Source: Crassaminicella indica (GTDB taxonomy: Bacteria > Bacillota > Clostridia > Peptostreptococcales > Thermotaleaceae). Taken from it: a stretch of 32,000 nt of DNA. This document shows, one piece after another, positions 7,932-32,000 of the stretch. The stretch covers positions 2,700,389 to 2,732,388 of the forward strand of contig NZ_CP078093.1 of NCBI RefSeq assembly GCF_019203185.1, in the 5' to 3' direction. The position numbers and the translations under genes are program-made. Positions within the stretch are counted from its first letter, which is position 1, and every line of letters begins with the position of its first letter. The notes under the pieces are model-generated. The model was not told the DNA's origin, did not search any database, and worked only from the letters and a program-made list of their open reading frames with translations.

Positions 7932-9190
7932 ATGAGTGATTTATTCAACAAAAATCAGTTAGATGAAAAAACTAAAGAGCTGATTTCAAAAATGGAAAAA
8001 GAAATTGCTAATCTAAAAAATGAGTTATTCTACTTTAAAAATCAAATTTTAAATAAAAATAGAAAAATATTCGGCTCTTCTAGTGAGCAAACAAGCTCAA
8101 TGCAAATATCCATCTTTGATGAAGCTGAAAAATTCAGCAATTTAAAAATAGAAGAACCAACAATTGAAGAAATCACTTACAAGAAAAATAAGCCCTCTAA
8201 AAATATAGGCAAAAAAGATAATTTAGCGAATTTAGAAAAAGTAGTGCTTGAACATAAATTAGATGAAAATGAACAAGTCTGCGAAAAATGCTCATCAAAT
8301 TTAGTAGTTATAGGAAAGAAATCAAAAGAGATTCTGAAAATAATTCCAGCAAAAATATGTGGCTTTATAAATCTCCAAGTAAAAAAGCCCCAATAGTCCT
8401 TTATGACTATCAAAAGACAAGGTCAGGTTCTTACCCTAAGAACTTTTTAAAAGGTTTTGCTGGGGTTATTCAAACAGATGGTTATACATGTTATAATCAG
8501 ATTGAAAATGTAAAAAGGATATATTGTCTAGTTCACATAAGAAGAAAATTTCATGAAATCATAGTAAATCTAAATGAAGAAGCCCTCAAAGAATCACGAG
8601 CATTAATAGGGTTTAATTCTTGTGCCAAGCTTTATGAAATCGAAAAAAAGCTTAGAGAAGAGCATAGTGAAAAAGAAGATTACTATGATATACGTTATAA
8701 AACAAGACTTGAAAAATCTAAGCCAATAATAGAAGAATTTATGGATTATGTAGATAAAGAAATAAAAGATGCAGTGCCTAGAAGCCCACTAGGAAAAGCG
8801 CTAGAATACACAAAGAAGCTTTTACCAAATTTCCTTATCTTTTTAGAAAATGGAACACTTGAAATAGATAATAATGGAGCTGAAAGATCCATAAAGCCAT
8901 TTGTAATGGGTCGTAAAAACTGTCTCTTTTCAGCATCATCAAAAGGAGCAGCTTCAAGTGCACCGCTTTATAGTATTATAGAAACAGCAAAGCTTAATCA
9001 CCTAGCAGTAGAAAAATATCTACTATACTTGATGGATGAATTATCAAAGCTTCAAAACAAAGATAAATCATCTTTATTGAAACTTCTTCCTTGGGCCAGT
9101 GAACTCCCAAAAGAACTAAAAATTGAACTAAAAAAAATCAATCCAGTAAGAGATAATTCTCCTACTGGATTAAATTTTATCAGGTATTAA
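7932..9190 (+). pseudogene. IS66-family DDE transposase (TnpC), frameshifted with an internal deletion
   Basis: Two overlapping ORFs (7932..8396, 8288..9190). N-terminal coiled coil, Zn-finger-like CEKCSSNLVVIGKK, then IQTDGYTCYN, LVHIRRKF and the hallmark DNNGAERSIKPFVMGRKNCLFS. The frame breaks after IPAK. Confidence 0.85.
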
Positions 9191-9541: not shown

Positions 9542-10268
9542 ATGCCATATACAACTACTAATATTTTAAAACCAAACTAAGAAATTTACAACTATATTGA
9601 AGATGTAAATTATGGTATGATTAAACCATAAATCAATCATTTAAGCAACTTGATGTATGGTCTAGTGGCTGTACATAACAATAAGTCAATCTCTTCAATT
9701 TCTAAGGCTATCTTATCAGATAAAGATAGTAGCTGTATTTATAAGTTTTTAAGCAAGTCAAAGTGGGATGGTAAGATTCTAAACAGAAATCGAACAGCAA
9801 ATTTGAATCTTTTTTTAGAGCAACATACCAAATCTAATTCCGTAGGATTTCTAATAATTGATGATACTGTTAATTCCAAGCCAGAAGCTAAGAAGATAGA
9901 AAGATTAGACTATCACTTTTCTCATGCAGAAGGCAAGAATATTTGGTTCCACTATGTAGTTACTTCTAATTTTGTTGTAAGAGATATTAAATATCGCTCA
10001 AGAATTTGTGAGAAATTTTAAAACACCATCCCATTGTAAAAAAATATATCCCTTTACAGATTCATGGTATAGCAATCAAGGGATAATTTATGAAAGTCTT
10101 AATCATTTTATTAGTGCTGTAAAAGGCAATAGAATTATAGTACCTAAAGGAATAAAACTTCAGTTTTCTAAATTCACAGAATATCTAGACCTCTCTACTT
10201 TAGATGTTGTGACCATCAAAGATAAGGAATATAGGAGATACGTTTATCAAAGTCCTGTAGCAAAATAA
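9542..10268 (+). pseudogene. IS4/IS701-like transposase, N-terminal part, multiple stops and frameshifts
   Basis: MPYTTTNILKPN*...*INHLSNLMYGLVAVHNNKSISSISKAIL...FLIIDDTVNSKPEAKKIERLDYHFSHAEGK (first DDE aspartate region). Broken into at least 3 frames (ORFs 9650..10021, 10008..10268). Confidence 0.6.
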
Positions 10269-14398: not shown

Positions 14399-15268
14399 TT
14401 GAAAATATTTAACATTTATATGCTTATTATTACGATTCTTTTACAACTAACAGTAATTTTAATGTTTAATACATCTATTGAAACTGCTACATCCCTTGAA
14501 AATCTCAAAAGGTGTATACCATTTTTCAACTTATTAATAATGATTTTAACTTTTTTTGTTATTTTTTCTATAAAAAAAATAAATGAATATAGAAACAAAG
14601 AAATTGAAAATAAATTATTAAAAACCTACTTAAGTAATGTAGAAAGTATACTTACTTTATTTCGAAAACAAAGACATAGCTATATCAACCATATACAAAC
14701 CATAAAATCTATGAGCTATTTAGAAGAGTATAATGATTTAATAGATTATTTAGAAGGGATTTCAGAAGAATATAGAAATGTTTCTGAATTAATCAGAGTA
14801 GGAAATCCAGCTCTTACAGCTTTATTGAATATAAAAAAGGAAATTGCAGAAAAAAAAGGCGTGAATGTATATATTAAGTGTAAATACAAAACAAATTTTG
14901 AATGGATTAGACCTTGGGATCTTTGTGATATGGTAGGGAATTTAATAGATAATGCAATTGAAGGGGCTACGATACTCACTAATTCCAAAAAATGGATAAA
15001 AGTAAAAATCGATAAATCTGAAAATAAATATATCTTACAAATAGAGAATACAGGAAAATTAGATAAAAATATTCCTACAGAAGAGTTATTTAAAGCAGGT
15101 ATTTCTACTAAAAATGCGACCAGCCGAGGGTACGGACTATATATCGTAAAACAAATCGTTGAAAAATATCATGGAACTGTAAGCATAGAAGAAACAGAAG
15201 ATGAAACCGTATTGGTAACATTAGTGCTAATAGAAGGAGTACAAGAAAATGTTGAAAAGATTATCTGA
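14399..15268 (+). CDS. agrC: AgrC-like histidine kinase (2 TM helices, HPK10-type DHp and GHKL ATPase), the C-terminal half
   Basis: TTG start. H-box RKQRHSYINHIQTI, N-box DMVGNLIDNAIEG, G-box TSRGYGLYIVKQIV. Only 2 N-terminal TM helices, too few for a stand-alone AgrC sensor. Confidence 0.8.
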   Translation: MKIFNIYMLIITILLQLTVILMFNTSIETATSLENLKRCIPFFNLLIMILTFFVIFSIKKINEYRNKEIENKLLKTYLSNVESILTLFRKQRHSYINHIQTIKSMSYLEEYNDLIDYLEGISEEYRNVSELIRVGNPALTALLNIKKEIAEKKGVNVYIKCKYKTNFEWIRPWDLCDMVGNLIDNAIEGATILTNSKKWIKVKIDKSENKYILQIENTGKLDKNIPTEELFKAGISTKNATSRGYGLYIVKQIVEKYHGTVSIEETEDETVLVTLVLIEGVQENVEKII

Positions 15269-15887
15269 TACAATAGCTATTTACATAAGCAAAAATTTAA
15301 AAAGTGATAGGGATAAAATAGAGATTTATTCCTATGGACTACAAATATTTTTAGGAACAGCTTTCGAAATCATATTTATTATTATTACTGCTTATTTGCT
15401 TAATACCTTAAAATCTACAATTGTTGTATTAGTGTCTTTTATTCTTTTTAGAAGGTTATTAGGGGGGACTCACTGCACTATTTATAGAAACTGTTTTTTT
15501 GTAAGTGGGTTTAGTATGCTTTTATTAGGATTTATAGGTGATCAAGTAGTCTTATCATCTAAATACTTATTCGTTTTACTTGGATTAGCTTATATATTCT
15601 CTGTCATACAAACCATTAGATATATTCCAATGGGAACAGAGAAGAAAATGATAAAAAATTCAAATACTCGTTTAAAAATCAAAATACAAACAATACTACT
15701 TTTAAGTTTTTGGATGATCATCATTTATTTATTAAAAGATAAAGTTTCATCAAAATATATATTTTCTAGTTTATTAGGGGTAATTGGTGCATTTTTCTTT
15801 AGCACCCCTTTTAGTTATAAAATCATTAATCATTTAGAAATTTACTTGAATTTCTTAACAAAAGGAGGAAAAAAACAAAATGTTTAA
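15249..15887 (+). CDS. agrB: AgrB accessory gene regulator protein B (AgrD-processing membrane endopeptidase)
   Basis: MLKRLSDTIAIYISKNLK...IEIYSYGLQIFLG...FRRLLGGTHCTIYRNCF carries the catalytic His and Cys. Four or more TM segments. Overlaps the kinase stop by 20 nt and the agrD start by 8 nt. Confidence 0.85.
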   Translation: MLKRLSDTIAIYISKNLKSDRDKIEIYSYGLQIFLGTAFEIIFIIITAYLLNTLKSTIVVLVSFILFRRLLGGTHCTIYRNCFFVSGFSMLLLGFIGDQVVLSSKYLFVLLGLAYIFSVIQTIRYIPMGTEKKMIKNSNTRLKIKIQTILLLSFWMIIIYLLKDKVSSKYIFSSLLGVIGAFFFSTPFSYKIINHLEIYLNFLTKGGKKQNV

Positions 15888-16031: not shown

Positions 16032-16742
16032 ATGATGAATATATTAATATGTGATGATGATCTATATACAAGAAAAATGCTAGAAAAAATAGTATCACAA
16101 AATCCTTTTGTAGATACTGTTTTTCTTGCAAAGGATGGCGTAGAAGCAATTAATATGATTAAAAATGAATCTATTGATATTGCATTAATGGATATTGATA
16201 TGCCTAATCTAGATGGCATAGATGCAGCAAAAATGATGAGTAATTTATCTTCTAAAACTAGATTTATTTTTATTACTGCGTATATGGAGCATGCTATTGA
16301 ATCTTTTAGCGTACATCCTTATGATTATCTTTTAAAGCCAATAGATATTTCAAAATTTAAATATACACTTAATAATCTTATAATCATTGTTATGGAGGAT
16401 TTTAAAGAGAATGGTATTAGAAAGATTACTATAAAAGATAAAAGTAAAATATCTGTTGTTCCACTAAAAGAGATATTATATTTTGAAAAGGTAGATAGGG
16501 ATGTATTGGTACATACTCAAAAAGAAGAGTATACCTTAAGTAAAACATTAACTGAACTAGAAGATAAACTTAATAGTAGTTTTTGTAGAGTGCATCAATC
16601 GTTTATAGTAAATATAGAAAAAATAAAGACAATTACAAATATGGGAAACAGATCTTATCAAATTGAATTTACAGGATCTGAAAAAACTGCTTTAATGAGT
16701 AGATATAAGTTTGAGAAGTTAAAGAAGATTGTAATTTTTTAG
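16032..16742 (+). CDS. agrA: LytTR-family response regulator (AgrA-like)
   Basis: Receiver domain ILICDDD...ALMDIDMPNLDG...FITAY. C-terminal LytTR-type domain ..ILYFEKVDRDVLVHTQKEEYTLSKTLTELEDKL..FCRVHQSFIVNIEKI. Confidence 0.85.
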   Translation: MMNILICDDDLYTRKMLEKIVSQNPFVDTVFLAKDGVEAINMIKNESIDIALMDIDMPNLDGIDAAKMMSNLSSKTRFIFITAYMEHAIESFSVHPYDYLLKPIDISKFKYTLNNLIIIVMEDFKENGIRKITIKDKSKISVVPLKEILYFEKVDRDVLVHTQKEEYTLSKTLTELEDKLNSSFCRVHQSFIVNIEKIKTITNMGNRSYQIEFTGSEKTALMSRYKFEKLKKIVIF

Positions 16743-17285: not shown

Positions 17286-18346
17286 TGACCCCCTATTATT
17301 GGACACTATCTTAAATTTTCTTAAGATAACATAGTATTTCAGCTTTTTCTAAAGTTGTCATGTAACTCTCGGTCTGCCCTTGACATTGAGCCTTTGTATT
17401 CATGATGTAATGCTCTTAAGGCAGCATTAAAAGTGAAAGAGCTTGCCTTGTTAATAGGCTATCATGCATGCCCTAAATATCAAGGGTACGCTCTGCCAGA
17501 CCTAAGTATAGCTTTTATAGCGCAATATGAACTTTCTCATTTGTATTCTGTAAATATTCATAATACTCATTTGGAGGCATAAACTTTGTAGATGAATGGA
17601 TTCTTTTCGTATTATATTTTTTGACGAACTCATTAACTTCTCTATAAGCTTGAGCATAATTTTCAAATTCATTGATTCCTAAACACTCATCTTCTAAGAT
17701 ACGATGATATGCTTCTATATATGCATTCATGTTTGGCGTATTATATGGAATTCTTTCATGTTCTATATTTAAATCTTTACAAGCAGTATTGTAAGCATTG
17801 CTAATATATTGAGGGCCATTATCTGATCGAATAATAGGCTTGCTTTTAACATCATATAATTGTCTTTTTAGTAATGCTGTTTTAATCACTCTAATTCCAT
17901 CTTCTGCTGTGCAACTAAGACCTATATGGTATGCAATAATGTTTCGATCAGCTACATCTATCATGCTCATAATGTAAAAAAATCTATCTTCGCCTGCTAT
18001 ATATCCATATTTTATATCTATTTCCCATAGTTGATTAGATCCTGTAACAATTCTATTTTTTGCGAGTTTTCTTGGATATTTTGGTTTGATTTTTCTTTGT
18101 TGTTTTAATATGTTCAGCTCTTTGCAAAGCCTGTATACTTTTTTCTTGTTTATGATTAAATTGCAATTTCTTCTCAACGCATATGTTAATTTTAAGTAAC
18201 CGTAGGAATATCCTTCGTCTTCAATAATTTGAATAATATATTCCTTGATTTGTTCATCGGATACCTTTTTCCCATTATTGGTTTTTGAATATCCTGGTAT
18301 AGCTCGTCCAGGAGCTTTACCTTTCGCTTGAGATTTTTTTGTCACG
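17286..18346 (-). mobile_element. IS3-family element, 5'-truncated (orfB 17515..18345 only; orfA and left end replaced by IS21)
   Basis: Terminus TGACCCCC at 17286. The orfB rve domain has WEIDIKYG.., SDNGPQY.., YNTKRIHSS... The annotated start is only a GTG one base from the IS21 terminus, so the reading frame is cut. Confidence 0.75.
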
Positions 18347-18435
18347 TGATAGTAGTGTTAATGTCAATACAAATTCCTCAAAAAAGGGAAGATTTTTTCC
18401 CCACCTAAAAAATATAAAAAAATAAATAATTGATT

Positions 18436-19230
18436 TTAAGTTTCAATCTCAGATGATTTTTTATTAGTTACTTCATTATTTTGAAACATAGACTTAATTA
18501 CACCTTCACGTTGTTTCATTCTATAACTTTCACCTTTAATTACAATAAAATGGCAATGATGTATAAACCTATCTAATATAGCAGTAGCTAATACTGGATC
18601 ATAAAAGATTCTTGCCCATTCTTCAAAAACTTTATTTGATGTAATTATTATTGAGCCTTTTTCATACCTTCTTGATATAATTTCATAAAAGTCATCAACA
18701 CTATTTTGATTAAGTTTTTTAAGTCCTAATTCATCCAATATTAGCAAATCTGGGCTTGTATAATATCTTAGTTTTTGCCTAAATGAATTATCAGCTCTTG
18801 ACATATATAGCTCTTCGAGCATTTCATTTACAGTTGTAAATACTACTTTATAGCCTTGTGTAATAGCTTTAAGACCTAGAGCTATTGCTAAATGCGTTTT
18901 TCCTGTGCCCGGAGGGCCTATTAATGCTATATTTTCTTTTTTACGTACAAATTCACAAGTACTAAGATTATACACAAACCTTTTATTAATTGTAGGTTGA
19001 TAATTAAAATTATACTCTTCTAATGTTTTATGCTGTGGAAATTTAGCTTTTCTAATTCTATTTTTATTGCTATTATTTTGTCTATTTAAGATTTCATCAT
19101 TTATTAATAATTCAAAAAATTCAATATATGACAAATCGCTTTTTATAGCTTCTTCATTTCTCGAATCAAGTGTTTTTACTATACCTGAAAGCTTCAGATT
19201 TTTTAATCTAGACATTAGCATATCATTCAT
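18436..19230 (-). CDS. istB: IS21 helper ATPase IstB
   Basis: Walker A GPPGTGKTH, Walker B LLILDELG, 264 aa. The start overlaps the istA stop. Confidence 0.9.
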   Translation of the reverse strand: MNDMLMSRLKNLKLSGIVKTLDSRNEEAIKSDLSYIEFFELLINDEILNRQNNSNKNRIRKAKFPQHKTLEEYNFNYQPTINKRFVYNLSTCEFVRKKENIALIGPPGTGKTHLAIALGLKAITQGYKVVFTTVNEMLEELYMSRADNSFRQKLRYYTSPDLLILDELGLKKLNQNSVDDFYEIISRRYEKGSIIITSNKVFEEWARIFYDPVLATAILDRFIHHCHFIVIKGESYRMKQREGVIKSMFQNNEVTNKKSSEIET

Positions 19231-20719
19231 ATTTAAACTCCCCCAAACTAGCTAGTTTATCATATTCTGCAAGATTCCTTGTAATATTAGTTGTATTTTC
19301 ATTGATATATGTTATATTTGTTTGAGTTGGAAAATCTATTATACCTTTCTCACAGATTCTCTTAATAATTTTATAAGAAAAAGCTCCATAAGTATTAGCT
19401 CTTTCACATGCTTTATCAATTATTTCATCATCATATTTTGTTCTTAAAGAAAGTATTCCAGAAATAGATTTATAATCATATTTTTTGTTGTTTGAATGCT
19501 TTATGAAGTTATCAAAGAACTTAAGAGCATTTTCTCCTATTTCAAGCATTTCTTCTCTTTGTCTTGACAATATTTGAGCACTTGTTATACTTTTACTATA
19601 AGGATAATGTTCATTATTTGTTATGTATTCGCCCTTTTTATCTTGACATAAGGTATGGAGGGCTATTTCTTTTTCTTTGTAGAATATTTTTAATATATTA
19701 TTTATCTCAATAGCTTCTATTTCTTGTCCTATATAAGCATATGGTACAGAATAATAATTAGCATCGTAGCTGATATGACAATTTGTATTTACAATACATT
19801 TAGTAGATTTAGATAAGATAAAATCTTTATTAGGGATAGGAATTAATTTTTCTTTTTCTATAGAGTTAAAAACTTCGGCAGGAACTTTTTTAGTTGTACC
19901 ATGTTTTCTTATGTTTGCAATATTTTCAAGCCATTCAGATAAAAATTCTTTAGCTTCTTCGTAATCTTTAAATTCTCGACCTTTAAAACAATTATCCTTA
20001 ACATATTTAACATTAGCTTCTACTTTGCCTTTATCCGTAGGAGTGTATACTCTACATGGCTGCGCCCAAAATCCATAATGCGAAGCAAATGATGCATAAT
20101 TTTTTTGCACTGTAGGTTCATAAAAATCAGCTTCTAAAATACCTGCTTTTAAATTATCTATTTTTACTGTTTCAGGTACTCCACAAAAATATTTAAAAGT
20201 ATTTTTGTGACAAGTAATAAAAGTTTTAACAGATTGGTCAAATACTATTTGAACATACATATATCTTGAATAACTCAATGTCATAACAAATATCCAAGCT
20301 TTTTTATGTCTGCCATTAACTTTTATTGTTCCTATATACCCAAAATCAACTTGAGCTTCTTCTCCAGGAAGAGAAGTTAATACCATGTAAGCTTTAGGTG
20401 GATTTTTCTTTATTCCAGCTATATATTTTTTTACAGTATCATAGCTTCCTTCATATCCATGTTCTCTTTGTAAATCTTGAAAAATGCGCTTTGCTGAAAG
20501 TTCTTTAGAAGTTTGAATATTGATATATTCTTTATATGGATCAAGTATTGAAGGATACGCTTTTCTTTCTACAGCACCATGTTTTTCAAGTTTTTCTAGT
20601 ACAGTTCTTACTGTTTTTCTGTCTATTTTTAACATTTTAGCTATTTGAGTTTTGTTATATCCTTTTTCAAATAAAGTATCTATTGTAGTATGCATTTCAA
20701 CCCCCAACATGTATTTCAT
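19223..20719 (-). CDS. istA: IS21 transposase IstA
   Basis: N-terminal HTH NKTQIAKMLKIDRKTVRTVL. DDE/rve core ..EEAQVDFGYIG..WIFVMTLSYSRYMYV...VKIDNLKAGI... 498 aa, uninterrupted. Confidence 0.9.
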   Translation of the reverse strand: MKYMLGVEMHTTIDTLFEKGYNKTQIAKMLKIDRKTVRTVLEKLEKHGAVERKAYPSILDPYKEYINIQTSKELSAKRIFQDLQREHGYEGSYDTVKKYIAGIKKNPPKAYMVLTSLPGEEAQVDFGYIGTIKVNGRHKKAWIFVMTLSYSRYMYVQIVFDQSVKTFITCHKNTFKYFCGVPETVKIDNLKAGILEADFYEPTVQKNYASFASHYGFWAQPCRVYTPTDKGKVEANVKYVKDNCFKGREFKDYEEAKEFLSEWLENIANIRKHGTTKKVPAEVFNSIEKEKLIPIPNKDFILSKSTKCIVNTNCHISYDANYYSVPYAYIGQEIEAIEINNILKIFYKEKEIALHTLCQDKKGEYITNNEHYPYSKSITSAQILSRQREEMLEIGENALKFFDNFIKHSNNKKYDYKSISGILSLRTKYDDEIIDKACERANTYGAFSYKIIKRICEKGIIDFPTQTNITYINENTTNITRNLAEYDKLASLGEFKYE

Positions 20720-21887: not shown

Positions 21888-23531
21888 TTACCACCTATAC
21901 TCATTATATCCACCTTCAGGACCATTGTCTTTGTCATACCATTTATCTAATAATTCAAACCAGTTACCTACTTTATTTATTTCTTTATTTATTCCTTCTT
22001 TACACCATTTTAATTTTCCATAACACATGTCTCCAAGCGCTAAATATTTAGTTAAATCAAGAGGGCTATACCAAAATTGAGATTCAAAATGTCTATGGTA
22101 AACGCGATTAGAATAAACTTCACTATCACCTGATGGGAAGAAAATAGATAATCCATTTTTACCATCCTTAAATCCATCATAATCTTCTCCCCCATAAGAA
22201 TAGAGAATCATATCATCTACTCTATCCATAAGAGTTTGAGATTTACTATAGATATTCGATAAATTTGTTATAAGAATATCTTCATTTTGATTATATATCA
22301 CATCATAAACAGCAGTCTGTTGTTTTTCTATATATACTTCATTCATAACAGTATTAGGTTGTTTTTCATTATATACTTCATCCGCAACAGTTTTTGTGAA
22401 TTTATCACTATATTTTATTTCTTTTGCAAAATCATATAAATCAAATAATGGATAAAAAAGTTGACTAATTATATTATTCGAATAAAAATAATGCATAATT
22501 TTAGGATTACTTATGTTCCCTCTTAATTCTTCGATTTTTTGTTTCTCATCCTCAATAGCAACAACAAGACCATCTACTGCATTTTTAACATCTTTTACTT
22601 TGGATAAGTCATAACAAGACAAAGTTTGATTTGTAACAATATTTTTACAAGAATCTCTCTGTTCTTCAACGATGATTGCACCAATTTGAGCATTTGTTAT
22701 AGTTTTAGGAGAATAATATTTTTCATATCCCCCCAAAGTTGAATCCTTTTCATTATTGTGTCCATCTTTAGTTTGTAATCTGTTTAGAATCTTATCATAT
22801 TTCCAACCTTGTTCCCATTCAGCTGTAGCACAGCCCACCATAATATCAGCTTCAAATCCACCATTTCCTTTATAAAATTGATAAGCAAACTCTACATTTC
22901 CCATGTAGCAAGCATCTAAACCTAAAACATCTACAGATTGTTCTTTAGTTAGTACATCAGAAATCTCTCCCGTATATAAAGCATCATATCCATTTGTTTC
23001 ATCTGTACATACCATTTTTCTTTTTTCGTTTTTAGGATCTTTTCTTGGTCCTCCTCCATGATTAGAAAGAATCAATACATATTTATCAGCTGGGTATTTT
23101 TCTTTACAATAATCAATAAAATTTTTTAGTGTGTAAGCATCCCCCATATTAGCTTCAAATGTTGTAAAAATTGTACTTATTTTAGGAAATTGTTTTCCAC
23201 CATCTAACCTTTTAACTTCATTTGGATTGATCTTATATAATCTTGTATCATCAAAATCTTCTCCAAATACCTCTTGATCAGAACTATAGCTTTCATGTCG
23301 GTCTACTAACGCAATCAGATTAATTTCTTTAGTAACACCTTTTTTCATTTCTACAACGTCACTTAACAAATCTGGTTCAAGATCATTATCTGCATCGCAA
23401 TAGTACATTATAGTGATAGGTTTTTTTTCTACTAATAATTCTTTTGCATAAGCAAAGTTAAGATTTCCTAAAACTAGACATATCAATAGAACAACGGTCA
23501 ATATAGCATTATTTTTTTTATTTTTAATCAT
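21888..23531 (-). CDS. secreted C11-family (clostripain-like) cysteine peptidase
   Basis: Start set at MIKNKKNN (23531, RBS GAAAGGA). Signal peptide ..LGNLNFAYA|KE. C11 layout MYYCDADNDLE..., catalytic His in LILSNHGGG and catalytic Cys in LGLDACYMG. Confidence 0.8.
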   Translation of the reverse strand: MIKNKKNNAILTVVLLICLVLGNLNFAYAKELLVEKKPITIMYYCDADNDLEPDLLSDVVEMKKGVTKEINLIALVDRHESYSSDQEVFGEDFDDTRLYKINPNEVKRLDGGKQFPKISTIFTTFEANMGDAYTLKNFIDYCKEKYPADKYVLILSNHGGGPRKDPKNEKRKMVCTDETNGYDALYTGEISDVLTKEQSVDVLGLDACYMGNVEFAYQFYKGNGGFEADIMVGCATAEWEQGWKYDKILNRLQTKDGHNNEKDSTLGGYEKYYSPKTITNAQIGAIIVEEQRDSCKNIVTNQTLSCYDLSKVKDVKNAVDGLVVAIEDEKQKIEELRGNISNPKIMHYFYSNNIISQLFYPLFDLYDFAKEIKYSDKFTKTVADEVYNEKQPNTVMNEVYIEKQQTAVYDVIYNQNEDILITNLSNIYSKSQTLMDRVDDMILYSYGGEDYDGFKDGKNGLSIFFPSGDSEVYSNRVYHRHFESQFWYSPLDLTKYLALGDMCYGKLKWCKEGINKEINKVGNWFELLDKWYDKDNGPEGGYNEYRW

Positions 23532-23595
23532 TATTAAACATCCTTTCGTTTTGTTTAAAGTACACTGCAATTTATTAAATAATTCTTAATAAGCT

Positions 23596-24593
23596 TGATG
23601 TTAGTATAAAAGCATGAACACGAAAAGTAGGATATAATAACTATATCTGAAAGGAAGTGTTCACATGAAACAAAATGGAAAAAGATATGATGATGATTTT
23701 AAAAGAATGCTTGTTGATTTATACAATACCACCAATCATACCTACAAAAGTCTCGAAAGCGAATATAGCGTAACAGCTACAACAATTCAAAGATGGGTAA
23801 AGGATTTAACTCCTATCGATCCATCGGATGAAAATTCTATAAGCCCTCGTGAAAGAAAGCAAGCGCCGCTATGGAGCGCATAAAATCCATCAACAGATGA
23901 AGAAAGAGAAACTGCTTGAAACAATACCTAGCCTAAAAAGAGTTCAAAGATTCATGAAAAATATGGGTTTATTTGCTGTACTCATCAAACGATTTAAATA
24001 CAAGAATACCAAGACTACTAATAAAAATCTTCCAAATCTATTTAATCAAGATTTTTCGACTACTAAATTGAATCAGAAGTGGGTTGCCGATATAACTTAT
24101 ATCAATACAATTCATGATGGATGGTGCTATTTAGCTTCAATACTTGATTTACATAGCCAAAAAATTGTTGGCTATGAATTTACTAAGAAAATGGATTAAT
24201 CCATCGTTTTAAACGCATTAGATAAAACTATGCTTCGACAAGGAAAACCTAAAAATGTGATTATACATACAGATCGTGTTAGTCAATACCTAAGTAAAGA
24301 TTATATAAAAGCAATCGAAGGCTATGGAGCAAAGAGATCTTATAGTGCTAAGGGAAATCCTTATGATAATGCTGTAATCAAATCATTTCATGCAATTTTG
24401 AAAAAAGAAGAAATTTACCAAAATATTTATCGTTCATATGAAAAAGCTAATTTGGCTATATTTGAGTTTATTGAATCCTGGTACAACAATAAAAGAATTC
24501 ATAGCAGCATTGGATATCTTACACCAAATGAATTTGAAAAACTTGCTGCTTAAAATATCACACTTTTTGTGTCCAAATATTGACATAAGTCCA
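23596..24593 (+). mobile_element. IS3-family element, decayed (orfA truncated, orfB in 3 pieces, ~260 bp shorter than its relative)
   Basis: Ends TGATGTTAGTATAAAAGCATGAACAC... and ...GTGTCCAAATATTGACATAAGTCCA. Flanked by direct GCT (23593-23595 and 24594-24596). ORFs 23665..23883, 23849..24199 and 24230..24553 carry the HTH and rve motifs (WVADITYI, HTDRVSQY, YNNKRIHSSIGYLTP). Confidence 0.8.
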
Positions 24594-26579: not shown

Positions 26580-27840
26580 TGGGCTTATGTCAATATTTTG
26601 AACACAAAAAGTTTAACAGATTAAAAAGCTGACTTTAAATTATTCTCAAATTGGTCGGGAGTGATATAACCAATACTACTATGTATTCTATTTCTGTTGT
26701 ATCAAGACTCAATGAATTCAAAGATAGATTTTTTAGCTTCATTAAAATCTCTATACTTTTTATGATTAACTTCTTCTTTTTTTAATATTGAATGAGATGA
26801 TTCTATTGGAGCATTATCATAGGGATTACCCTTACTGCTAAAAGAAATAGATAATCCTAGACTTTTAACCTTTTTCATATATTCATAGCTAGTGTATTGG
26901 CTTCCTCGGTCAAAGTGAATGATAACTTGACCATTAGGTCTTTGGTTAAAATAAGCATTTTCTAAAGCTTTTATTGTTAATTCAGTAGTGATAGATTTAG
27001 AGAATGAGTAACCTATGATTTTTCTTGTATATAAATCCATTATTGATGCTAGGTAACACCAACCATCTTTAATAGTATAAATATAGGTAATATCAGCTAC
27101 CCACTTTTGATTTATACAAGTAGCTGTAAAGTCTCTTTTGATGATGTTTTTACCTATTATTTCATTACACTTAGAAGAATAATACTTAAATTTTTTATGA
27201 ACAATTGATCTAATACCTAGCTTTTTCATTAACCTTTATGTTCTTTTTAGACTTACTGACCATCCACGAGATTTTAGTATTTGTCTAATTTTAGGAGCAC
27301 CGTAACGCTTTTTACTATCTAGATAAACAGACATAATGGCTTTTTAGTTTTTCATTTTCAAGAGATCTGTTAGATTTTTCTCTGGACCTACGGTCATAGT
27401 AAGTGCTACGAGGTAGTTCTAAAATTTTACATAACAATTTAATATTATGTTTTTTCTTATTATCTTCGATAAAAGAAATTAATGATTGAATATCTATTTT
27501 TTCGTGAATATGGTTAAAGCCTTTTTTAAGATTTCAATTTCCTCCTTGATCTTTGCATTTTCCTTTTTCATCTCAGCTATATCTTTAGGAGTAATAGGTT
27601 CTTGATCTTCTACTTTAATTACTTTGTTTTCTTTAATCCATTTATAGATTGTTGTTCTAGTTACACCATATTCATGTTCTAACTCTGATACTGAACTACC
27701 AGAGTTATATAATTCAATAATTGTTTGTTTAAAATCTTCGTTGTATCTTTTACCATTAGTATTCATACGGACACACCCTTTCATCTAATTATAGTTTATC
27801 TTGTTAAACTAAGTGTGTCCATGATTCTATACTAACACCA
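26580..27840 (-). mobile_element. IS3-family insertion sequence (1261 bp), orfA intact, orfB inactivated
   Basis: Termini TGGGCTTATGTCAATATTTTGAACAC (26580) and ...ACTAACACCA (27840). Flanked by direct ACC (26577-26579 and 27841-27843). orfB has a premature stop before MKKLGIRS and a TGG-to-TGA nonsense at 26702 (FEFIES*YNRNRIHSSIGYITP). Confidence 0.85.
27494..27766 (-). CDS. IS3-family OrfA (HTH transposase subunit)
   Basis: MNTNGKRYNEDFKQTIIELYNSGSSVSELEHEYGVTRTTIYKWIKE plus a leucine-zipper-like tail. Start at 27766 follows AAAGGGTG. Confidence 0.75.
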   Translation of the reverse strand: MNTNGKRYNEDFKQTIIELYNSGSSVSELEHEYGVTRTTIYKWIKENKVIKVEDQEPITPKDIAEMKKENAKIKEEIEILKKALTIFTKK

Positions 27841-27973: not shown

Positions 27974-29272
27974 TTAATCGACCATTAATACTCTTCCATA
28001 CTCCATGCTTTCATGAATAACACCTAAAAGTGATAGTACAACTCCCATTGCTCCTTGTAATAAAGACAAATCATTTTCAAAATGATTTTTAATGATTTGA
28101 TTCATATCATAGCTAGTATCACTATTCTTATTAAATATATCAAGAATTGCATTTATATCTTTCTCAATAGTTTTAACAAAACGTTCATCTTTGGTATCCC
28201 TATAAGCCATCATTCTTATGCATAAAACACTAGAATACCCATGACATAAAATTGTTTCAAATAAATTATATCGATTTACAGGTTGATTGATTATATTAAT
28301 CAGATCTTTTTTATAAGTTTCCTCCTTTTGCGTATAACCCATATATTGAGCTGCTTTTTGCAACCCTCTTGCTATTCCTGTGTTACCATAACACCAACTT
28401 GCCATGGGAAGTCTTAAATTATCTGAATACTGTCCTTTGATAAAATTTTCAAAAGATAATTGCGTAGGCCATGCAGCAATATCATTACGGTATACTTTAA
28501 ATTGATCATAAATATCAAACAATGTGCTAATTGCATTTTCAATTCCTTCTACTCTTATTTCTTTATTATGTGCTTTAGTTAATGCCACTAATGGTCCTAA
28601 CATTCCATGAGATAAACCAAAATTAATATTTCCATTTGGAAACTCTAATTGTTCATCTTCTCTAGATAAATTTTCCTTAATAATATGAAAATTTATAATC
28701 GAATTATCCATATGCTCATGATAGTTAGTTAATTCAATAAGATATTTAATTAATTTTTCTAATTGCAAATTTTCCTCTAAATTCCATTCAAAATCTAGTA
28801 AAAAGTATACAAAACCAGATACTCCAGCAATAACATCATAATCGTTCATAAAAACATCATTTTTTCTTCTTAATCTTTCCACAAACTCAACAGCTTGCTC
28901 TAGAAAAAACTTATTTAATGTATTAGAGAATTTTGATAGATTTCCAGTTTTTTTATTAAATAAACTAACACAGAAACATTTATATCCAAATCCACCAATC
29001 ATACCAAGATTTTTTTCTGAAATACCATATGTTTCTATTTCCTGTTTCAATCCTTTACATAAGTCATATCCCATTTGTTCCCATTTATCTTTATTATCTA
29101 TTAGTGGATAGATCTCCGAAATTATCATTAAAAAATCACTATTATATATAGGATTTATAATTTCTAAATCATATTGTTCTTCAATGTATTGAAAAAAGCA
29201 ATTTAAAAACTCATTAACCCTATCCCTTGTATTTTCTGAAATATGTATATAATTATTTGTATCACCTATCAT
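27974..29272 (-). CDS. lanC: LanC lanthipeptide cyclase (class I)
   Basis: Zinc-ligand and active-site motifs GLSHGMLG, SWCYGNTGIARG and LCHGYSSVL, in the canonical order and spacing. The start overlaps the upstream gene stop by 11 nt. Confidence 0.9.
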   Translation of the reverse strand: MIGDTNNYIHISENTRDRVNEFLNCFFQYIEEQYDLEIINPIYNSDFLMIISEIYPLIDNKDKWEQMGYDLCKGLKQEIETYGISEKNLGMIGGFGYKCFCVSLFNKKTGNLSKFSNTLNKFFLEQAVEFVERLRRKNDVFMNDYDVIAGVSGFVYFLLDFEWNLEENLQLEKLIKYLIELTNYHEHMDNSIINFHIIKENLSREDEQLEFPNGNINFGLSHGMLGPLVALTKAHNKEIRVEGIENAISTLFDIYDQFKVYRNDIAAWPTQLSFENFIKGQYSDNLRLPMASWCYGNTGIARGLQKAAQYMGYTQKEETYKKDLINIINQPVNRYNLFETILCHGYSSVLCIRMMAYRDTKDERFVKTIEKDINAILDIFNKNSDTSYDMNQIIKNHFENDLSLLQGAMGVVLSLLGVIHESMEYGRVLMVD

Positions 29273-30023
29273 TATAAAATTCCCCCTCTTTTTTTAATCT
29301 TTGCATTTTTTTATTTTTAATAGCAAATTCTTGAAATGACTTACATTCTTTAATCCATTTCTGATCCCAATAATTCCATTCATACTCTAGTTGCCCAACA
29401 GCTATTTGTTTATCAATGAGAATACTATAATAATTTTGATAAAATCCAAAGTAATCTTCCAAAAACTTATTTGAGTATCCATAATTATTTTGTATAGAAT
29501 TTAAAAATTCAGCTGCACTTGTTTCTATAAACTCTTTAATTTTATCTCTCTTTTTAATAAAAACATAATTGCCTAAATTCTTAATACCTATCGACTCTTG
29601 TATTTCACACATATGTTCTTTTACAAACTCTTGTCCACTACTCATTGTAGTAGTTAATGTAAATCCTAATTTGCCAGCATAATTCATTAAATGGGCTGAA
29701 CTAAATATTCTATCCTCAAAAGTTTTCATAATTCCCGATATATTGTTAAAATAAACGGGACTAGCAAAAAACACAATGTCTGATTCTAATAATTTTTTTC
29801 TTATCTTAAAAAAGTCATCATGCTCATCTACTAAGCAAAATCCATTATCTAAACAATTTGAACATCCAAGGCAATAATTTATTTTATAATCTCTTAAACA
29901 AATTATCTCCGAGTCATAACTCGTATCTAAAATCTGAATTTTTTCCAAAATTCTTTTCGTTAACAAATTTGTAATAGAATTATTGTTATTACTACCAACA
30001 ACAGCTACTATTTTACATTTCAC
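29262..30023 (-). CDS. flavodoxin-fold NAD(P)H:FMN oxidoreductase-like protein (candidate lanthipeptide tailoring enzyme); not HFCD/LanD-like
   Basis: GTG start with AAGGAAG RBS. KIVAVVGSNNNNSIT (phosphate loop), CLGCSNCLDNGFC, DIVFFASPVYFNNISGIMKTFEDR are typical of the FMN_red/flavodoxin_2 family. About 100-aa C-terminal extension of unknown function. Confidence 0.7.
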   Translation of the reverse strand: MKCKIVAVVGSNNNNSITNLLTKRILEKIQILDTSYDSEIICLRDYKINYCLGCSNCLDNGFCLVDEHDDFFKIRKKLLESDIVFFASPVYFNNISGIMKTFEDRIFSSAHLMNYAGKLGFTLTTTMSSGQEFVKEHMCEIQESIGIKNLGNYVFIKKRDKIKEFIETSAAEFLNSIQNNYGYSNKFLEDYFGFYQNYYSILIDKQIAVGQLEYEWNYWDQKWIKECKSFQEFAIKNKKMQRLKKEGEFYNDR

Positions 30024-30151
30024 TATATCATCACTTCCTTATTACTACATGATTTTTTTAATAATTAATTTAGTAATAGTACATCCAAATGTTGTATGTG
30101 ATGTAATACTATATCTATTTATGGTTATTTTTTTTACTCCTTTTATTTGCA

Positions 30152-30176
30152 CAGTAGGTGATCAAAGGGGTCGTAA
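30152..30176. repeat. left arm of a perfect 25-bp inverted repeat (cagtaggtgatcaaaggggtcgtaa)
   Basis: Exact reverse complement of 30737-30761. Lies in the lanA2-flavoprotein intergenic region. GC-richer than its surroundings. Confidence 0.95.
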
Positions 30177-30221
30177 TATTTTATTACAGTTTAATTATAT
30201 AGTTCTACCTAATTATTTTAT

Positions 30222-30425
30222 TTAGCAGCGTGTACCTTCTCCTGGTTTAGCAGCATTACGACAAGCTGTCATATCACTTGGTGAACAATGAGTTGAAATT
30301 TCAGAACAATGTCTTTCTGATATATAAGTATAACAAAAAACATTAGCCGTCCACGCACGGCTAGTATTTTTATTATCAGTTTTAACTTTCTTTAAATTCA
30401 AATCAAAATCTTTAAATTTACCCAC
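30222..30425 (-). CDS. lanA: class I lanthipeptide precursor LanA2 (67 aa)
   Basis: GTG start with GAAGGAGAGA RBS. Leader MGKFKDFDLNLKKVKTDNKNTSR contains an FDLNL (FNLD-type) box at about -17. Core AWTANVFCYTYISERHCSEISTHCSPSDMTACRNAAKPGEGTRC has 5 Cys and 11 Ser/Thr. Confidence 0.85.
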   Translation of the reverse strand: MGKFKDFDLNLKKVKTDNKNTSRAWTANVFCYTYISERHCSEISTHCSPSDMTACRNAAKPGEGTRC

Positions 30426-30477
30426 AGTAATCTCTCCTTCATATGATTTAATTACATAATTTTATCTAACTATTTTT

Positions 30478-30684
30478 TTAGCAGCGTGTACCTTCTCCTG
30501 GCTTAGCAGCATTACGACAAGCTGTCATATCACTTGGTGAACAATGAGTTGAAGGATCAGAACAATACTTTCTTGATAAAACAGTATAGCAAGTAAGTGG
30601 ATTCATCGTCCAGTTACGAGCAGTATTTTTATTATCAGTTTTAACTTTCTTTAAATTCAAATCAAAATCTTTGAATTTACCCAT
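30478..30684 (-). CDS. lanA: class I lanthipeptide precursor LanA1 (68 aa)
   Basis: ATG start with AAGGGGGA RBS. Leader MGKFKDFDLNLKKVKTDNKNTAR. Core NWTMNPLTCYTVLSRKYCSDPSTHCSPSDMTACRNAAKPGEGTRC has 5 Cys and 11 Ser/Thr. Confidence 0.85.
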   Translation of the reverse strand: MGKFKDFDLNLKKVKTDNKNTARNWTMNPLTCYTVLSRKYCSDPSTHCSPSDMTACRNAAKPGEGTRC

Positions 30685-30736
30685 AGCAATTTCCCCCTTA
30701 TGATTTCTAACTACTATTATTGTTTTTTATTAACTC

Positions 30737-30761
30737 TTACGACCCCTTTGATCACCTACTG
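30737..30761. repeat. right arm of the perfect 25-bp inverted repeat (ttacgacccctttgatcacctactg)
   Basis: Exact reverse complement of 30152-30176. Lies in the lanB-lanA1 intergenic region. Confidence 0.95.
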
Positions 30762-30780: not shown

Positions 30781-32000
30781 TTATTTTCTTTTTGTATACT
30801 TCCACTTTTCTATTAAATCATGTAAAGAATGTCTTATGATTGATAAACATTTTCCTTCGTATGCTGTATCACCAATCATACGATTGCAATACATATGATT
30901 CATAGAAAATATAATCTCTTTTTTGATATTTGTTGTTTTTTTCTTTTCAATCTGCTTTTCTAACTGTTTTTTGAATTCAAATAACATTAGCTGTCTTTTT
31001 TTATATACTTCTATTATTTTTAATAATCTTTTATCAATTTTTTCAACTTCTCCTTTTAATATGTATTCTGCGATTCTAAGATAATTTATCCTTTCTTTCT
31101 TAAATTCATCTCTATATTTATTTCTCAAATTCTCTTCATCTAAGATTTCAAGCAATTCAAATTCATCATGAGTTAGCTCTTTTAATACCGATATCATACC
31201 AACCATATATAACAGTTCTTTATCCTTTTCATTATCTAAATCAAATGAATTTAATATATTAATTACAAAAATGCTATCCGCATAAAAAAATTGTTCCGCA
31301 TATTCTATTAATTCTAATCCACCATATCTATTCACTTCTCTTTCGTATACATCAAATATAGTTCTATTAATTAAACGATTTTTTTGCAATTCAAAAATCC
31401 AAGACTTAATTCTATGTAATTTATTTAATGCTATATTTTCATTCTCAAATTTAAATCTTAGTCGTAGATGTTTTCCATTCTCATAATATCTAAGAAAAAA
31501 GAATTTCTCTAAATCTAGATCATCTAACAAACATGGTAATTCTTTTGTTAATAATTCATTTTCTTTATCTCCTAATCCATATAATTTCATATAAATCCAA
31601 CCATGGTCTCCTAAAGAAAAACGTTGACTCTTGTTTTGAATCATCCTATTGTTTTCTACAAAATCCTCTTTTATAGTCGATAAAAGTATTTTTTTATTTT
31701 CTTCATGTTGTATGAATGAAAAAACAAATTCTGCCATATAATTATTCTGGTCTAAATCCTCTACAATGGGATTGCTAAACATTTCAGTTTCGTGTAAATT
31801 CAATTCACCATTCTTCTTAACAGATGAATATATAATATCTAAGAACTCTTCATGTTTTAAATCAACTAATATTCGATGGTCTCCTTCACACAAACATACA
31901 TAGTCATCAATTTTATATTGGTGAATGACTTTATCAAAGCTTTTTTTGAACTTTTCTAAACTTTTCATATCAAAGTTCTCACTACTAAAATTCCAACTTT
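30781..32000 (-). CDS. lanB: LanB lanthipeptide dehydratase, C-terminal ~406 aa (end of glutamylation domain plus glutamate-elimination domain); 5' part outside window
   Basis: The frame stays open upstream of the track's first Met (..SWNFSSENFDMKSLEKF..) to the window edge. Lant_dehydr_C-type motifs GWIYMKLYG, FFFLRYYENGKHLRLRF, YEREVNRYGG, AEQFFYADS. Confidence 0.9.
   Translation of the reverse strand, partial: SWNFSSENFDMKSLEKFKKSFDKVIHQYKIDDYVCLCEGDHRILVDLKHEEFLDIIYSSVKKNGELNLHETEMFSNPIVEDLDQNNYMAEFVFSFIQHEENKKILLSTIKEDFVENNRMIQNKSQRFSLGDHGWIYMKLYGLGDKENELLTKELPCLLDDLDLEKFFFLRYYENGKHLRLRFKFENENIALNKLHRIKSWIFELQKNRLINRTIFDVYEREVNRYGGLELIEYAEQFFYADSIFVINILNSFDLDNEKDKELLYMVGMISVLKELTHDEFELLEILDEENLRNKYRDEFKKERINYLRIAEYILKGEVEKIDKRLLKIIEVYKKRQLMLFEFKKQLEKQIEKKKTTNIKKEIIFSMNHMYCNRMIGDTAYEGKCLSIIRHSLHDLIEKWKYTKRK

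Follow-up and report, generated by a model that had tools for sequence, protein, structure and literature searches.

Why should the two precursor genes of a lanthipeptide operon be framed by a perfect inverted repeat, and does that repeat act as DNA or as RNA? The question arises from a stretch of 32,000 nucleotides (nt) of the Crassaminicella indica genome (contig NZ_CP078093.1, positions 2,700,389 to 2,732,388; hereafter the window), in which two tandemly duplicated small open reading frames (ORFs) on the minus strand, lanA1 (30478–30684) and lanA2 (30222–30425), are enclosed by two 25-nt arms. An earlier inspection of the letters alone (the sequence-only reading) had offered three explanations, namely an inversion switch worked by a site-specific recombinase, an RNA duplex serving as a processing stalk, and paired operator sites or the termini of a mobile cassette. 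As set out below, the arms form a helix that is conserved around lanA, that covaries, and whose divergence is constrained on the sense strand. We consider it probable that the inverted repeat reflects, at the DNA level, a long-range helix in the sense RNA that encloses lanA, and that the precursor message is thereby excised or stabilised apart from the enzyme messages.

The sequence CAGTAGGTGATCAAAGGGGTCGTAA at 30152–30176 (plus strand) is the exact reverse complement of 30737–30761, with 25 of 25 positions matching, just as the sequence-only reading had it. If up to three mismatches were allowed, the 25-mer was found only twice in the window and not at all in 100 shuffled versions, which bears out the earlier statements that the motif is absent elsewhere in the window and unlikely to arise by chance. 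With three mismatches, the repeat grows inward to 33 nt at 91% (30152–30184 and 30729–30761). The arms were also correctly described as richer in G+C than their context (48% compared with approximately 27% for the window) and as enclosing, within 560 bp, nothing but lanA1 and lanA2, with the stop codon of lanB at 30781 and the start of a flavoprotein gene at 30023 as the neighbouring landmarks. No target-site duplication was found on either flank of the arms (...ATTTGCA and AATTAAAT...), again in agreement with the first inspection.

Read in the direction of the operon, the 5' arm (30737–30761, minus strand; sense strand CAGUAGGUGAUCAAAGGGGUCGUAA) lies in the lanB–lanA1 intergenic region, 19 nt past the lanB stop and 52 nt ahead of the lanA1 start, and the 3' arm (30152–30176, minus strand; sense strand UUACGACCCCUUUGAUCACCUACUG) begins 45 nt past the lanA2 stop. 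The inner extensions of the two arms, at 30729–30736 and 30177–30184 on the same strand, pair imperfectly with each other. Directly past the 3' arm stands a conserved AAAUAAAAGGAG motif (30136–30149, minus strand) that forms the ribosome-binding site of the next gene in the homologues; in the window it is orphaned, with no start codon after it. The sequence that follows the 3' arm is GUGCAAAUAAAAGGAG, which contains no U run.

Conservation and covariation of the bracketing helix

Exact-protein look-ups, together with a scan of species genomes for a DNA pattern and a scan of metagenomes, gave 18 further homologous loci (L001 to L018). The metagenome scan was made with a LanA alignment, the leader pattern of which was too generic, and contributed at least three loci. 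Both flanks of lanA were readable in 16 of the further loci and in the window, representing approximately 11 lineages, and L017 and L018, which end ahead of the 3' arm, show 5' arms only. All loci with both flanks contain a helix of 16–46 bp that links the intergenic regions on either side of lanA.

This bracket is kept with one or two lanA copies, behind lanB or lanC, and ahead of lanC, an Rce1-like gene, or a flavoprotein gene. Two copies are present in the window, between lanB and the flavoprotein gene, and in a Clostridiaceae metagenome-assembled genome (MAG) and Clostridium mobile (together L002 and L003), in which genes for 51-residue precursors lie between lanB and lanC. A single lanA is followed by an Rce1-like gene in one Logan assembly (L001) and by Rce1-like and LytTR genes in a Tissierella MAG (L012). 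It stands between lanB and a series of Rce1, two FMN_red genes, and lanC in Clostridium pascui and two Logan assemblies (L004–6), and between a lanB fragment (a 242-residue ORF, Lant_dehydr_N) and an Rce1-like gene in another Logan assembly (L007). The bracketed lanA follows lanB in the Logan assembly L013 and lanB and lanC in a set of JGI and Logan assemblies (L008–11). The remaining loci are metagenome contigs (L014, L015, and L016), with an ORF of lanB size ahead of lanA in L014 and one of 426 residues in L016. The arms are recognisably homologous in the window, L001, L002–3, L004–6, L007, L012, and L013, which we refer to as the main family; arms of unrelated sequence occupy the same position in L008–11 (17 bp), L014 and L015 (40 and 20 bp), and L016 (16 bp).

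Duplication of lanA inside the bracket is seen in two lineages, the window (30222–30684) and L002/L003 (920–1290 and 6257–6627, respectively). The duplicated unit begins in the 5' untranslated region (UTR) in the window and at the last 6 nt of the 5' arm in L002/L003, which also carry a third, partial copy of the 5' UTR ahead of the 3' arm. These different ends suggest two separate duplication events, and in both lineages a single helix still encloses both lanA copies.

The strength of the helix was assessed by an ungapped scan for the best pairing between the 130 nt ahead of lanA and the 160 nt after it in 12 representative loci; the duplicate assemblies L005–6 and L009–11 have the same sequences as scanned representatives. 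RNAduplex, when run on these flanks, over-extended the helices through large internal loops and was replaced by the ungapped scan and a strand-neutral one. The main family and L014 score 58–72, followed by L015 (43), L008 (39), and L016 (35). The same geometry (130 nt, a gap of 463 nt, and 160 nt) placed at 394 other positions of the window gave a mean of 21.4, a standard deviation of 3.0, and a maximum of 34, compared with 62 for the lanA bracket in the window; against that maximum, the L016 helix taken alone is borderline. Three class I lanA genes from outside the family lack the bracket and score 19 (nisin-like), 27 (kunkecin-like), and 20 (epiA).

Folding led to the same helix, which is part of the minimum-free-energy (MFE) structure in 11 of the 11 distinct loci folded (L003 not separately), with a median pair probability of approximately 1.0. 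In the window, all 25 pairs are present in both the MFE and the centroid fold, the 656-nt segment has a z of −7.2 relative to shuffles, and the predicted free energy of the duplex is approximately −46 kcal/mol. The enclosed loop measures 234–560 nt across loci. Rfam covariance models gave no match in the window at gathering thresholds, the sole hit being a microRNA at chance level (E = 0.37, 30068–30115).

Covariation was examined in a two-arm alignment of the eight alignable loci, with 500 shuffles and with partner columns slid by one to three positions as controls. Standard pairs occupy 89.9% of the alignment cells, and double-sided changes occur at 10 pairs, compared with 4.9 ± 1.2 in the shuffles (none of the 500 reaches 10) and at most two with slid partners. 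In the numbering of the 25-mer, pair 1-25 is C-G, A-U, or U-A across loci, pair 9-17 is G-C, C-G, A-U, or G·U, and pair 16-10 forms a series of G-C, G·U, and A-U; at 12-14, 20-6, and 21-5, both partners are changed in L013. A flanking inverted repeat with compensatory changes in homologous lan clusters, which the sequence-only reading had proposed looking for, is hence present across the lineages sampled. Covariation alone is not decisive between RNA and DNA, because two inverted copies of a protein-binding site would co-vary too.

The mismatches were also sorted by strand, in helices defined by scoring all non-Watson–Crick pairs equally. On the sense strand the arm cells comprise 19 G·U pairs, 3 A·C pairs, and 12 other mismatches, A·C being the counterpart of G·U on the antisense strand; all three A·C cells lie in the peripheral extensions. 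Chance helices on the same strand of the window hold 55 G·U, 36 A·C, and 212 other cells, and the G·U share of non-Watson–Crick cells is accordingly 56% in the brackets versus 18% in chance helices. The arms of L007 have diverged to 5 DNA mismatches in 30 (83% DNA identity), four of which are sense-strand G·U pairs, and the only differences between L014 and L015 are transitions compatible with wobble pairing. Counted as independent positions, roughly 13 G·U stand against 3 A·C (two-sided binomial p ~0.02). Nothing about a double-stranded DNA element, whether it serves a recombinase, a regulator, or a transposon, would favour G·T over A·C on one particular strand, whereas RNA pairing in the sense transcript would; the preference therefore points to an RNA helix. 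Overall, we judge it likely that a selected RNA helix exists in the sense transcript.

One further feature of the C. indica arms is the presence of AGGUGAUC in the 5' arm (30743–30750) and GAUCACCU in the 3' arm (30163–30170), both on the minus strand, which we take to resemble an extended Shine-Dalgarno sequence and the 3' end of 16S rRNA (the anti-Shine-Dalgarno). A functional Shine-Dalgarno/anti-Shine-Dalgarno role of the arms was rejected because the central base of the motif covaries in the homologues (G-C, C-G, A-U, G·U), and the resemblance is probably a coincidence.

A proposed processing or stability stalk and the alternatives

The anatomy of the operon bears on whether both arms reach the same RNA. 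The arms stay clear of ORFs and Shine-Dalgarno sequences in every locus. The 5' arm starts 6–20 nt past the stop of the upstream gene (lanB or lanC) and ends 19–52 nt ahead of the lanA start, and the 3' arm starts 29–58 nt past the last lanA stop, followed in the main family, within approximately 12 nt, by the conserved AAAUAAAAGGAGG that is the ribosome-binding site of the next gene. An intrinsic terminator (a G+C-rich hairpin with a U tract) was found neither between lanA2 and the flavoprotein gene nor in L002, L004, and L014, and promoter scans found no consistent sigma-70-like promoter ahead of the 5' arm. One candidate promoter within lanB, TTGTAA-17-TAGAAT, was discarded, as it occurs in L002 and L004 only, is missing from the window, and looks like conservation of coding sequence. 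In C. pascui, lanB begins 46 nt past agrB, which places lanA in the middle of a long, probably Agr-controlled operon. Given co-oriented genes, gaps of 6–20 nt, and the lack of a terminator or consistent promoter, both arms are predicted to share one transcript.

In an RNA running from lanB through lanA1, lanA2, and the flavoprotein gene to lanC, the arms would pair as a perfect 25-bp duplex closing a 560-nt loop that holds only the precursor genes and their ribosome-binding sites. Because the arms lie outside the coding regions and the Shine-Dalgarno sequences, the helix can persist during lanA translation. A duplex of 25–30 bp would be a likely substrate of the double-strand-specific RNase III, and if both arms were cut, a lanA RNA with its ends still base-paired would be set free. 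Base-paired RNA ends are poor substrates for 5'-to-3' and 3'-to-5' exonucleases. Cleavage, or merely the pairing of the ends, would then set the lanA message apart from those of the enzymes and protect its termini against exonucleases, and the cuts would leave behind a lanB fragment lacking 3' structure and a downstream fragment with a monophosphorylated, single-stranded 5' end. The outcome would be a precursor peptide made far in excess of enzyme from one promoter.

The duplex in the minus-strand RNA that closes the lanA loop, one of the three proposals of the sequence-only reading, is well supported by its recurrence in approximately 11 lineages, the compensatory changes, and the G·U excess on the sense strand, whereas the RNase III stalk that sets stoichiometry is a step that we infer. 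If the helix is granted, processing by RNase III with a stabilising or stoichiometric outcome seems to us evenly balanced. A more specific version is put forward tentatively, as somewhat short of an even chance: the bracket may be a modular 'mRNA excision stalk' that is cut by RNase III after the manner of rRNA stalks and has co-evolved with one lanthipeptide precursor family in Clostridia and Tissierellia, freeing a long-lived lanA message with paired ends while the enzyme messages decay. In such a stalk the loop would tolerate the gain or loss of lanA copies, and the base of the helix may pass ribosomes from lanB to the next enzyme gene.

Several considerations weigh against this interpretation. 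Some of the approximately 11 lineages are related, so the covariation counts are not independent events. A higher rate of C-to-T mutation on the non-template strand could contribute slightly to the excess of G·U pairs; in the null helices the ratio is already 1.5:1. Pairing as such would not require the degree of sequence conservation found in the main family, where up to 22 of the 25 positions vary little, and a sequence-specific partner is possible. A lanA-specific promoter may also lie hidden, either in the terminal part of lanB or in the stretch from the 5' arm to lanA; in the latter case only RNA that reads through from further upstream could form the helix. Finally, RNase III cutting of Firmicutes mRNA often begins decay rather than stabilisation.

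Among the alternatives, the one that survives best accepts the RNA helix but lets it work without endonucleolytic cleavage. Three variants are conceivable: the helix could be a clamp that insulates lanA from decay by RNase Y or RNase J, the paired 5' and 3' UTRs could let terminating ribosomes re-initiate on lanA, or the lanB stop (19 nt before the helix) could be brought to the downstream ribosome-binding site (approximately 13 nt after it), so that the enzyme genes stay translationally coupled. All of the structural evidence fits such a helix as well as it fits a processing stalk, and the unpaired Shine-Dalgarno sequences of lanA and the downstream gene, together with the short distances from the lanB or lanC stop to the 5' arm (6–20 nt) and from the 3' arm to the conserved ribosome-binding site (at most approximately 12 nt), suit it. 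A near-perfect duplex of 25–30 bp would nevertheless be hard to hide from RNase III, which to our knowledge is near-universal in Firmicutes, and we found no bacterial precedent for a hand-over of ribosomes across the base of a helix. In the window, moreover, the ribosome-binding site past the arm is orphaned and the helix is nonetheless perfect. We regard an action without cleavage as unlikely, though clearly ahead of any DNA-based reading.

If the arms acted in DNA, they might be paired operators for one regulator, such as the LytTR response regulator of the linked Agr-like system, which, once bound, would form a loop or a roadblock at the lanA segment. Agr-like and LytTR genes occur together with the clusters, primary sequence is strongly conserved in the main family (22 of 25 positions between the window and L001), and the covariation would be shared by two inverted binding sites. 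The arm differences, however, are mostly sense-strand G·U (19 versus 3 A·C), which is inexplicable for a double-stranded DNA site, and the distant family members stay complementary with unrelated sequences. Neither an internal palindrome nor a direct-repeat pair with LytTR spacing is seen in the arms, and the motif is absent from the other sequence examined (the window and the fetched loci), all of which makes operators improbable. A specific match of the 5' arm to a LytTR/AgrA box pair (xGTAxG repeated 19 bp apart) was tried and dropped for its poor spacing and match; it would also leave the complementary, G·U-paired 3' arm unexplained.

An inversion switch, in which a site-specific recombinase flips the 560-bp lanA segment and so turns the precursor off, would account for a perfect 25-bp inverted repeat around a short segment, and clostridial invertases can act in trans. 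In all 19 assemblies, however, lanA points the same way as the lan genes beside it, and this holds where one sequence was assembled independently more than once (L004–6 and L008–11). The G·U bias is strand-specific, and the arms of L007, with as many as 5 mismatches in 30 (83% DNA identity), still pair as RNA. None of the 36 window ORFs scanned with Pfam and NCBIfam (28/36 ORFs of at least 80 amino acids, plus lanA1 and lanA2) encodes a serine or tyrosine recombinase, so the earlier remark that no recombinase lies nearby holds; the transposases among them are exclusively of the DDE type (IS3, IS21, IS66, and DDE_5). A literature search, too, found no record of invertons at lanthipeptide genes. 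The switch proposed by the sequence-only reading thus finds no support and appears very improbable.

Least credible of all, to the point of being negligible, are terminal inverted repeats of a small mobile cassette (MITE-like, that is, resembling a miniature inverted-repeat transposable element, or a transposon remnant) carrying lanA, which would fit a compact unit between inverted termini found beside different downstream genes in different genomes but which lacks a target-site duplication, an associated transposase, and further copies in the window, always holds the same operon position, and has a degenerate 25-mer that matched, among 185,579 species genomes (C. indica not among them), only C. 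mobile and the Clostridiaceae MAG, each with two arms. Neither the plasmid collection (tblastn) nor the viral contigs scanned gave a match. The 25-mer is therefore not a dispersed repeat in those genomes, as the first inspection had allowed it might be, and occurs in the two that match only as the pair flanking lanA; of the paired operators and mobile cassette that it had also raised, the cassette finds no support and the operators are unlikely. The long-range RNA helix, probably acting in processing or stability, remains our preferred explanation of the bracket.

The lanthipeptide cluster and its surroundings

LanA1 is a class I lanthipeptide precursor of 68 residues with the leader motif FKDFDLNLKK and a C-terminal CSPSDMTAC...RC, and its tandem duplicate LanA2 has 67 residues and a GTG start. 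The two are identical to two C. indica hypothetical proteins (LanA1 at 100%). The Pfam scan gave no family match for either, and NCBIfam gave only a weak, sub-threshold match of LanA2 to the gallidermin/nisin family leader. A profile of relatives comprises 31 related precursors that share the leader FKDFDLDLK and the C-terminal CS(P/A)SDMTAC...RC. They appear to form an uncharacterised class I lanthipeptide family in which a variable middle region measures 0–40 residues, and their usual companions are one or two FMN_red flavoproteins, an Rce1-like (CPBP) membrane protease, TraX, and an Agr-like quorum-sensing module.

Within the coding region of lanA2, at codons ~22–35, there is a terminator-like hairpin (30344–30363, minus strand; UAGCCGU-GCGUGG-ACGGCUA followed by AUGUUUUUUG) with no equivalent in lanA1. 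The scan returned two terminator-like sites (one palindrome, on both strands) compared with 0.2 expected, and this hairpin could give truncated lanA2 transcripts or could be due to chance.

All of the neighbouring lan genes are on the minus strand. The 3' part of lanB (lantibiotic dehydratase, Lant_dehydr_C) occupies 30781–31998, its frame continuing beyond the end of the window. The next operon gene after lanA2 encodes the FMN_red flavoprotein (29262–30023), the counterpart of the second of two FMN reductases in C. pascui, and is followed by lanC for the lanthionine cyclase (27974–29272) and, beyond it, by a broken IS3 element and then an ABC exporter. From the 3' arm to the flavoprotein start (30024–30151) the gap is 128 nt, compared with approximately 24 nt in the homologues. 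Its distal 76 nt match the junction between the two FMN reductase genes of C. pascui (80% identity, L004 7053–7123), which implies that the Rce1-like gene and the first FMN reductase gene were deleted in C. indica.

The window is rich in insertion sequences (7932–9190, 9650–10021, 17515–20719, 23849–24553, and 26702–27784), comprising IS66, a DDE_5 fragment, IS3, IS21 (istA/istB), split IS3 fragments, and the broken IS3 that sits between lanC and the ABC exporter. An Agr-like module is also present, with a histidine kinase (14399–15268), AgrB (15249–15887), and a LytTR regulator (16032–16742); in relatives it adjoins lanB, whereas in the window insertion sequences and a clostripain gene (21888–23570) intervene. 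The lan cluster of the window may be decaying or rearranged. Among the other assemblies, lanB is split into 216 and 824 residues in L006 (1802–4907) and shortened to the 242-residue fragment in L007 (3439–4167), and L006 (7042–8343) has one FMN reductase versus two in C. pascui; these differences may be frameshifts, assembly errors, or real variants.

Comparison with known systems

In pathways to ribosomally synthesized and post-translationally modified peptides (RiPPs), the precursor peptide must be made in large excess over the modifying enzymes. The established way of achieving this is to have the precursor gene first in the operon with a leaky hairpin behind it, and local hairpin attenuators or terminators of this kind follow nisA, mccA, and the A gene in the A–B intergenic regions of lasso-peptide operons. 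The lanA bracket shares with them the presumed purpose of raising precursor mRNA above enzyme mRNA from one operon. Those hairpins are short, local, and 3' of the first operon gene, whereas lanA lies mid-operon after lanB or lanC, has no local terminator, and is spanned as a whole, in one or two copies, by the helix. If the helix is indeed a processing or stabilising stalk, it would be a second, portable answer to the problem of precursor-to-enzyme stoichiometry and could possibly be reused as a design element in the heterologous expression of lanthipeptide clusters.

The clostridial DNA invertons, such as the flgB and cwpV switches of Clostridioides difficile, resemble the bracket in having inverted repeats of approximately 20–30 bp around a few hundred bp of DNA in a low-G+C Firmicute. 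They differ from it in that the lanA segment has one orientation in 19 of 19 assemblies, with no recombinase in the scanned window ORFs, that the lanA arms diverge in a strand-biased, RNA-compatible manner, and that the segment holds genes and not a promoter. For pipelines that mine genomes or search for invertons, the locus is a warning against taking every perfect inverted repeat that frames a gene for a DNA switch.

In Staphylococcus aureus, the 3' UTR of icaR masks the Shine-Dalgarno sequence of its own mRNA and represses translation, with involvement of RNase III (PMC3868564). The lanA locus likewise pairs the 5' and 3' UTRs of one mRNA, but the lanA Shine-Dalgarno sequence lies outside the helix and the 5' arm ends 19–52 nt before the start codon, so that masking of either by the helix does not apply.

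Closer parallels are offered by RNase III itself. In Bacillus subtilis, the enzyme cuts long-range intramolecular mRNA duplexes at sites that lie as much as 505 nt apart (Taggart et al., Nucleic Acids Res 2025, PMC11780869). There as here, the duplex forms within one mRNA of a Firmicute from segments hundreds of nucleotides apart (234–560 nt in the lanA loci) and is long enough for RNase III. The B. subtilis substrates were end-mapped in one species and are not described as conserved gene-bracketing elements (PMC11780869), whereas the lanA helix is conserved across genera with covariation and always surrounds one type of gene, and its cleavage is predicted. If that prediction is right, the bracket would represent, in naturally conserved and phylogenetically supported form, the kind of long-range mRNA duplex that RNase III has been mapped to cleave in B. 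subtilis, and it would be the first conserved gene-bracketing processing stalk with covariation support for a protein-coding gene in a biosynthetic operon; within the library that could be searched, the literature search found no description of a lanA-bracketing helix or of RNase III processing of lantibiotic mRNA.

The other parallel, a direct one, is with the processing stalks of rRNA, in which RNase III stems flank 16S and 23S rRNA (PMC6582327). In both cases a unit within a polycistronic transcript is framed by 5' and 3' flanks that pair with each other as a long helix, which in rRNA allows the unit to be released. The lanA loop differs in being a translated mRNA for small peptides, with ribosome-binding sites and ORFs in place of a structural RNA. 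By analogy with these systems, the lanA bracket would act like a long-range processing helix of the rRNA or RNase III type, in the role that usually falls to the leaky hairpin of RiPP operons.

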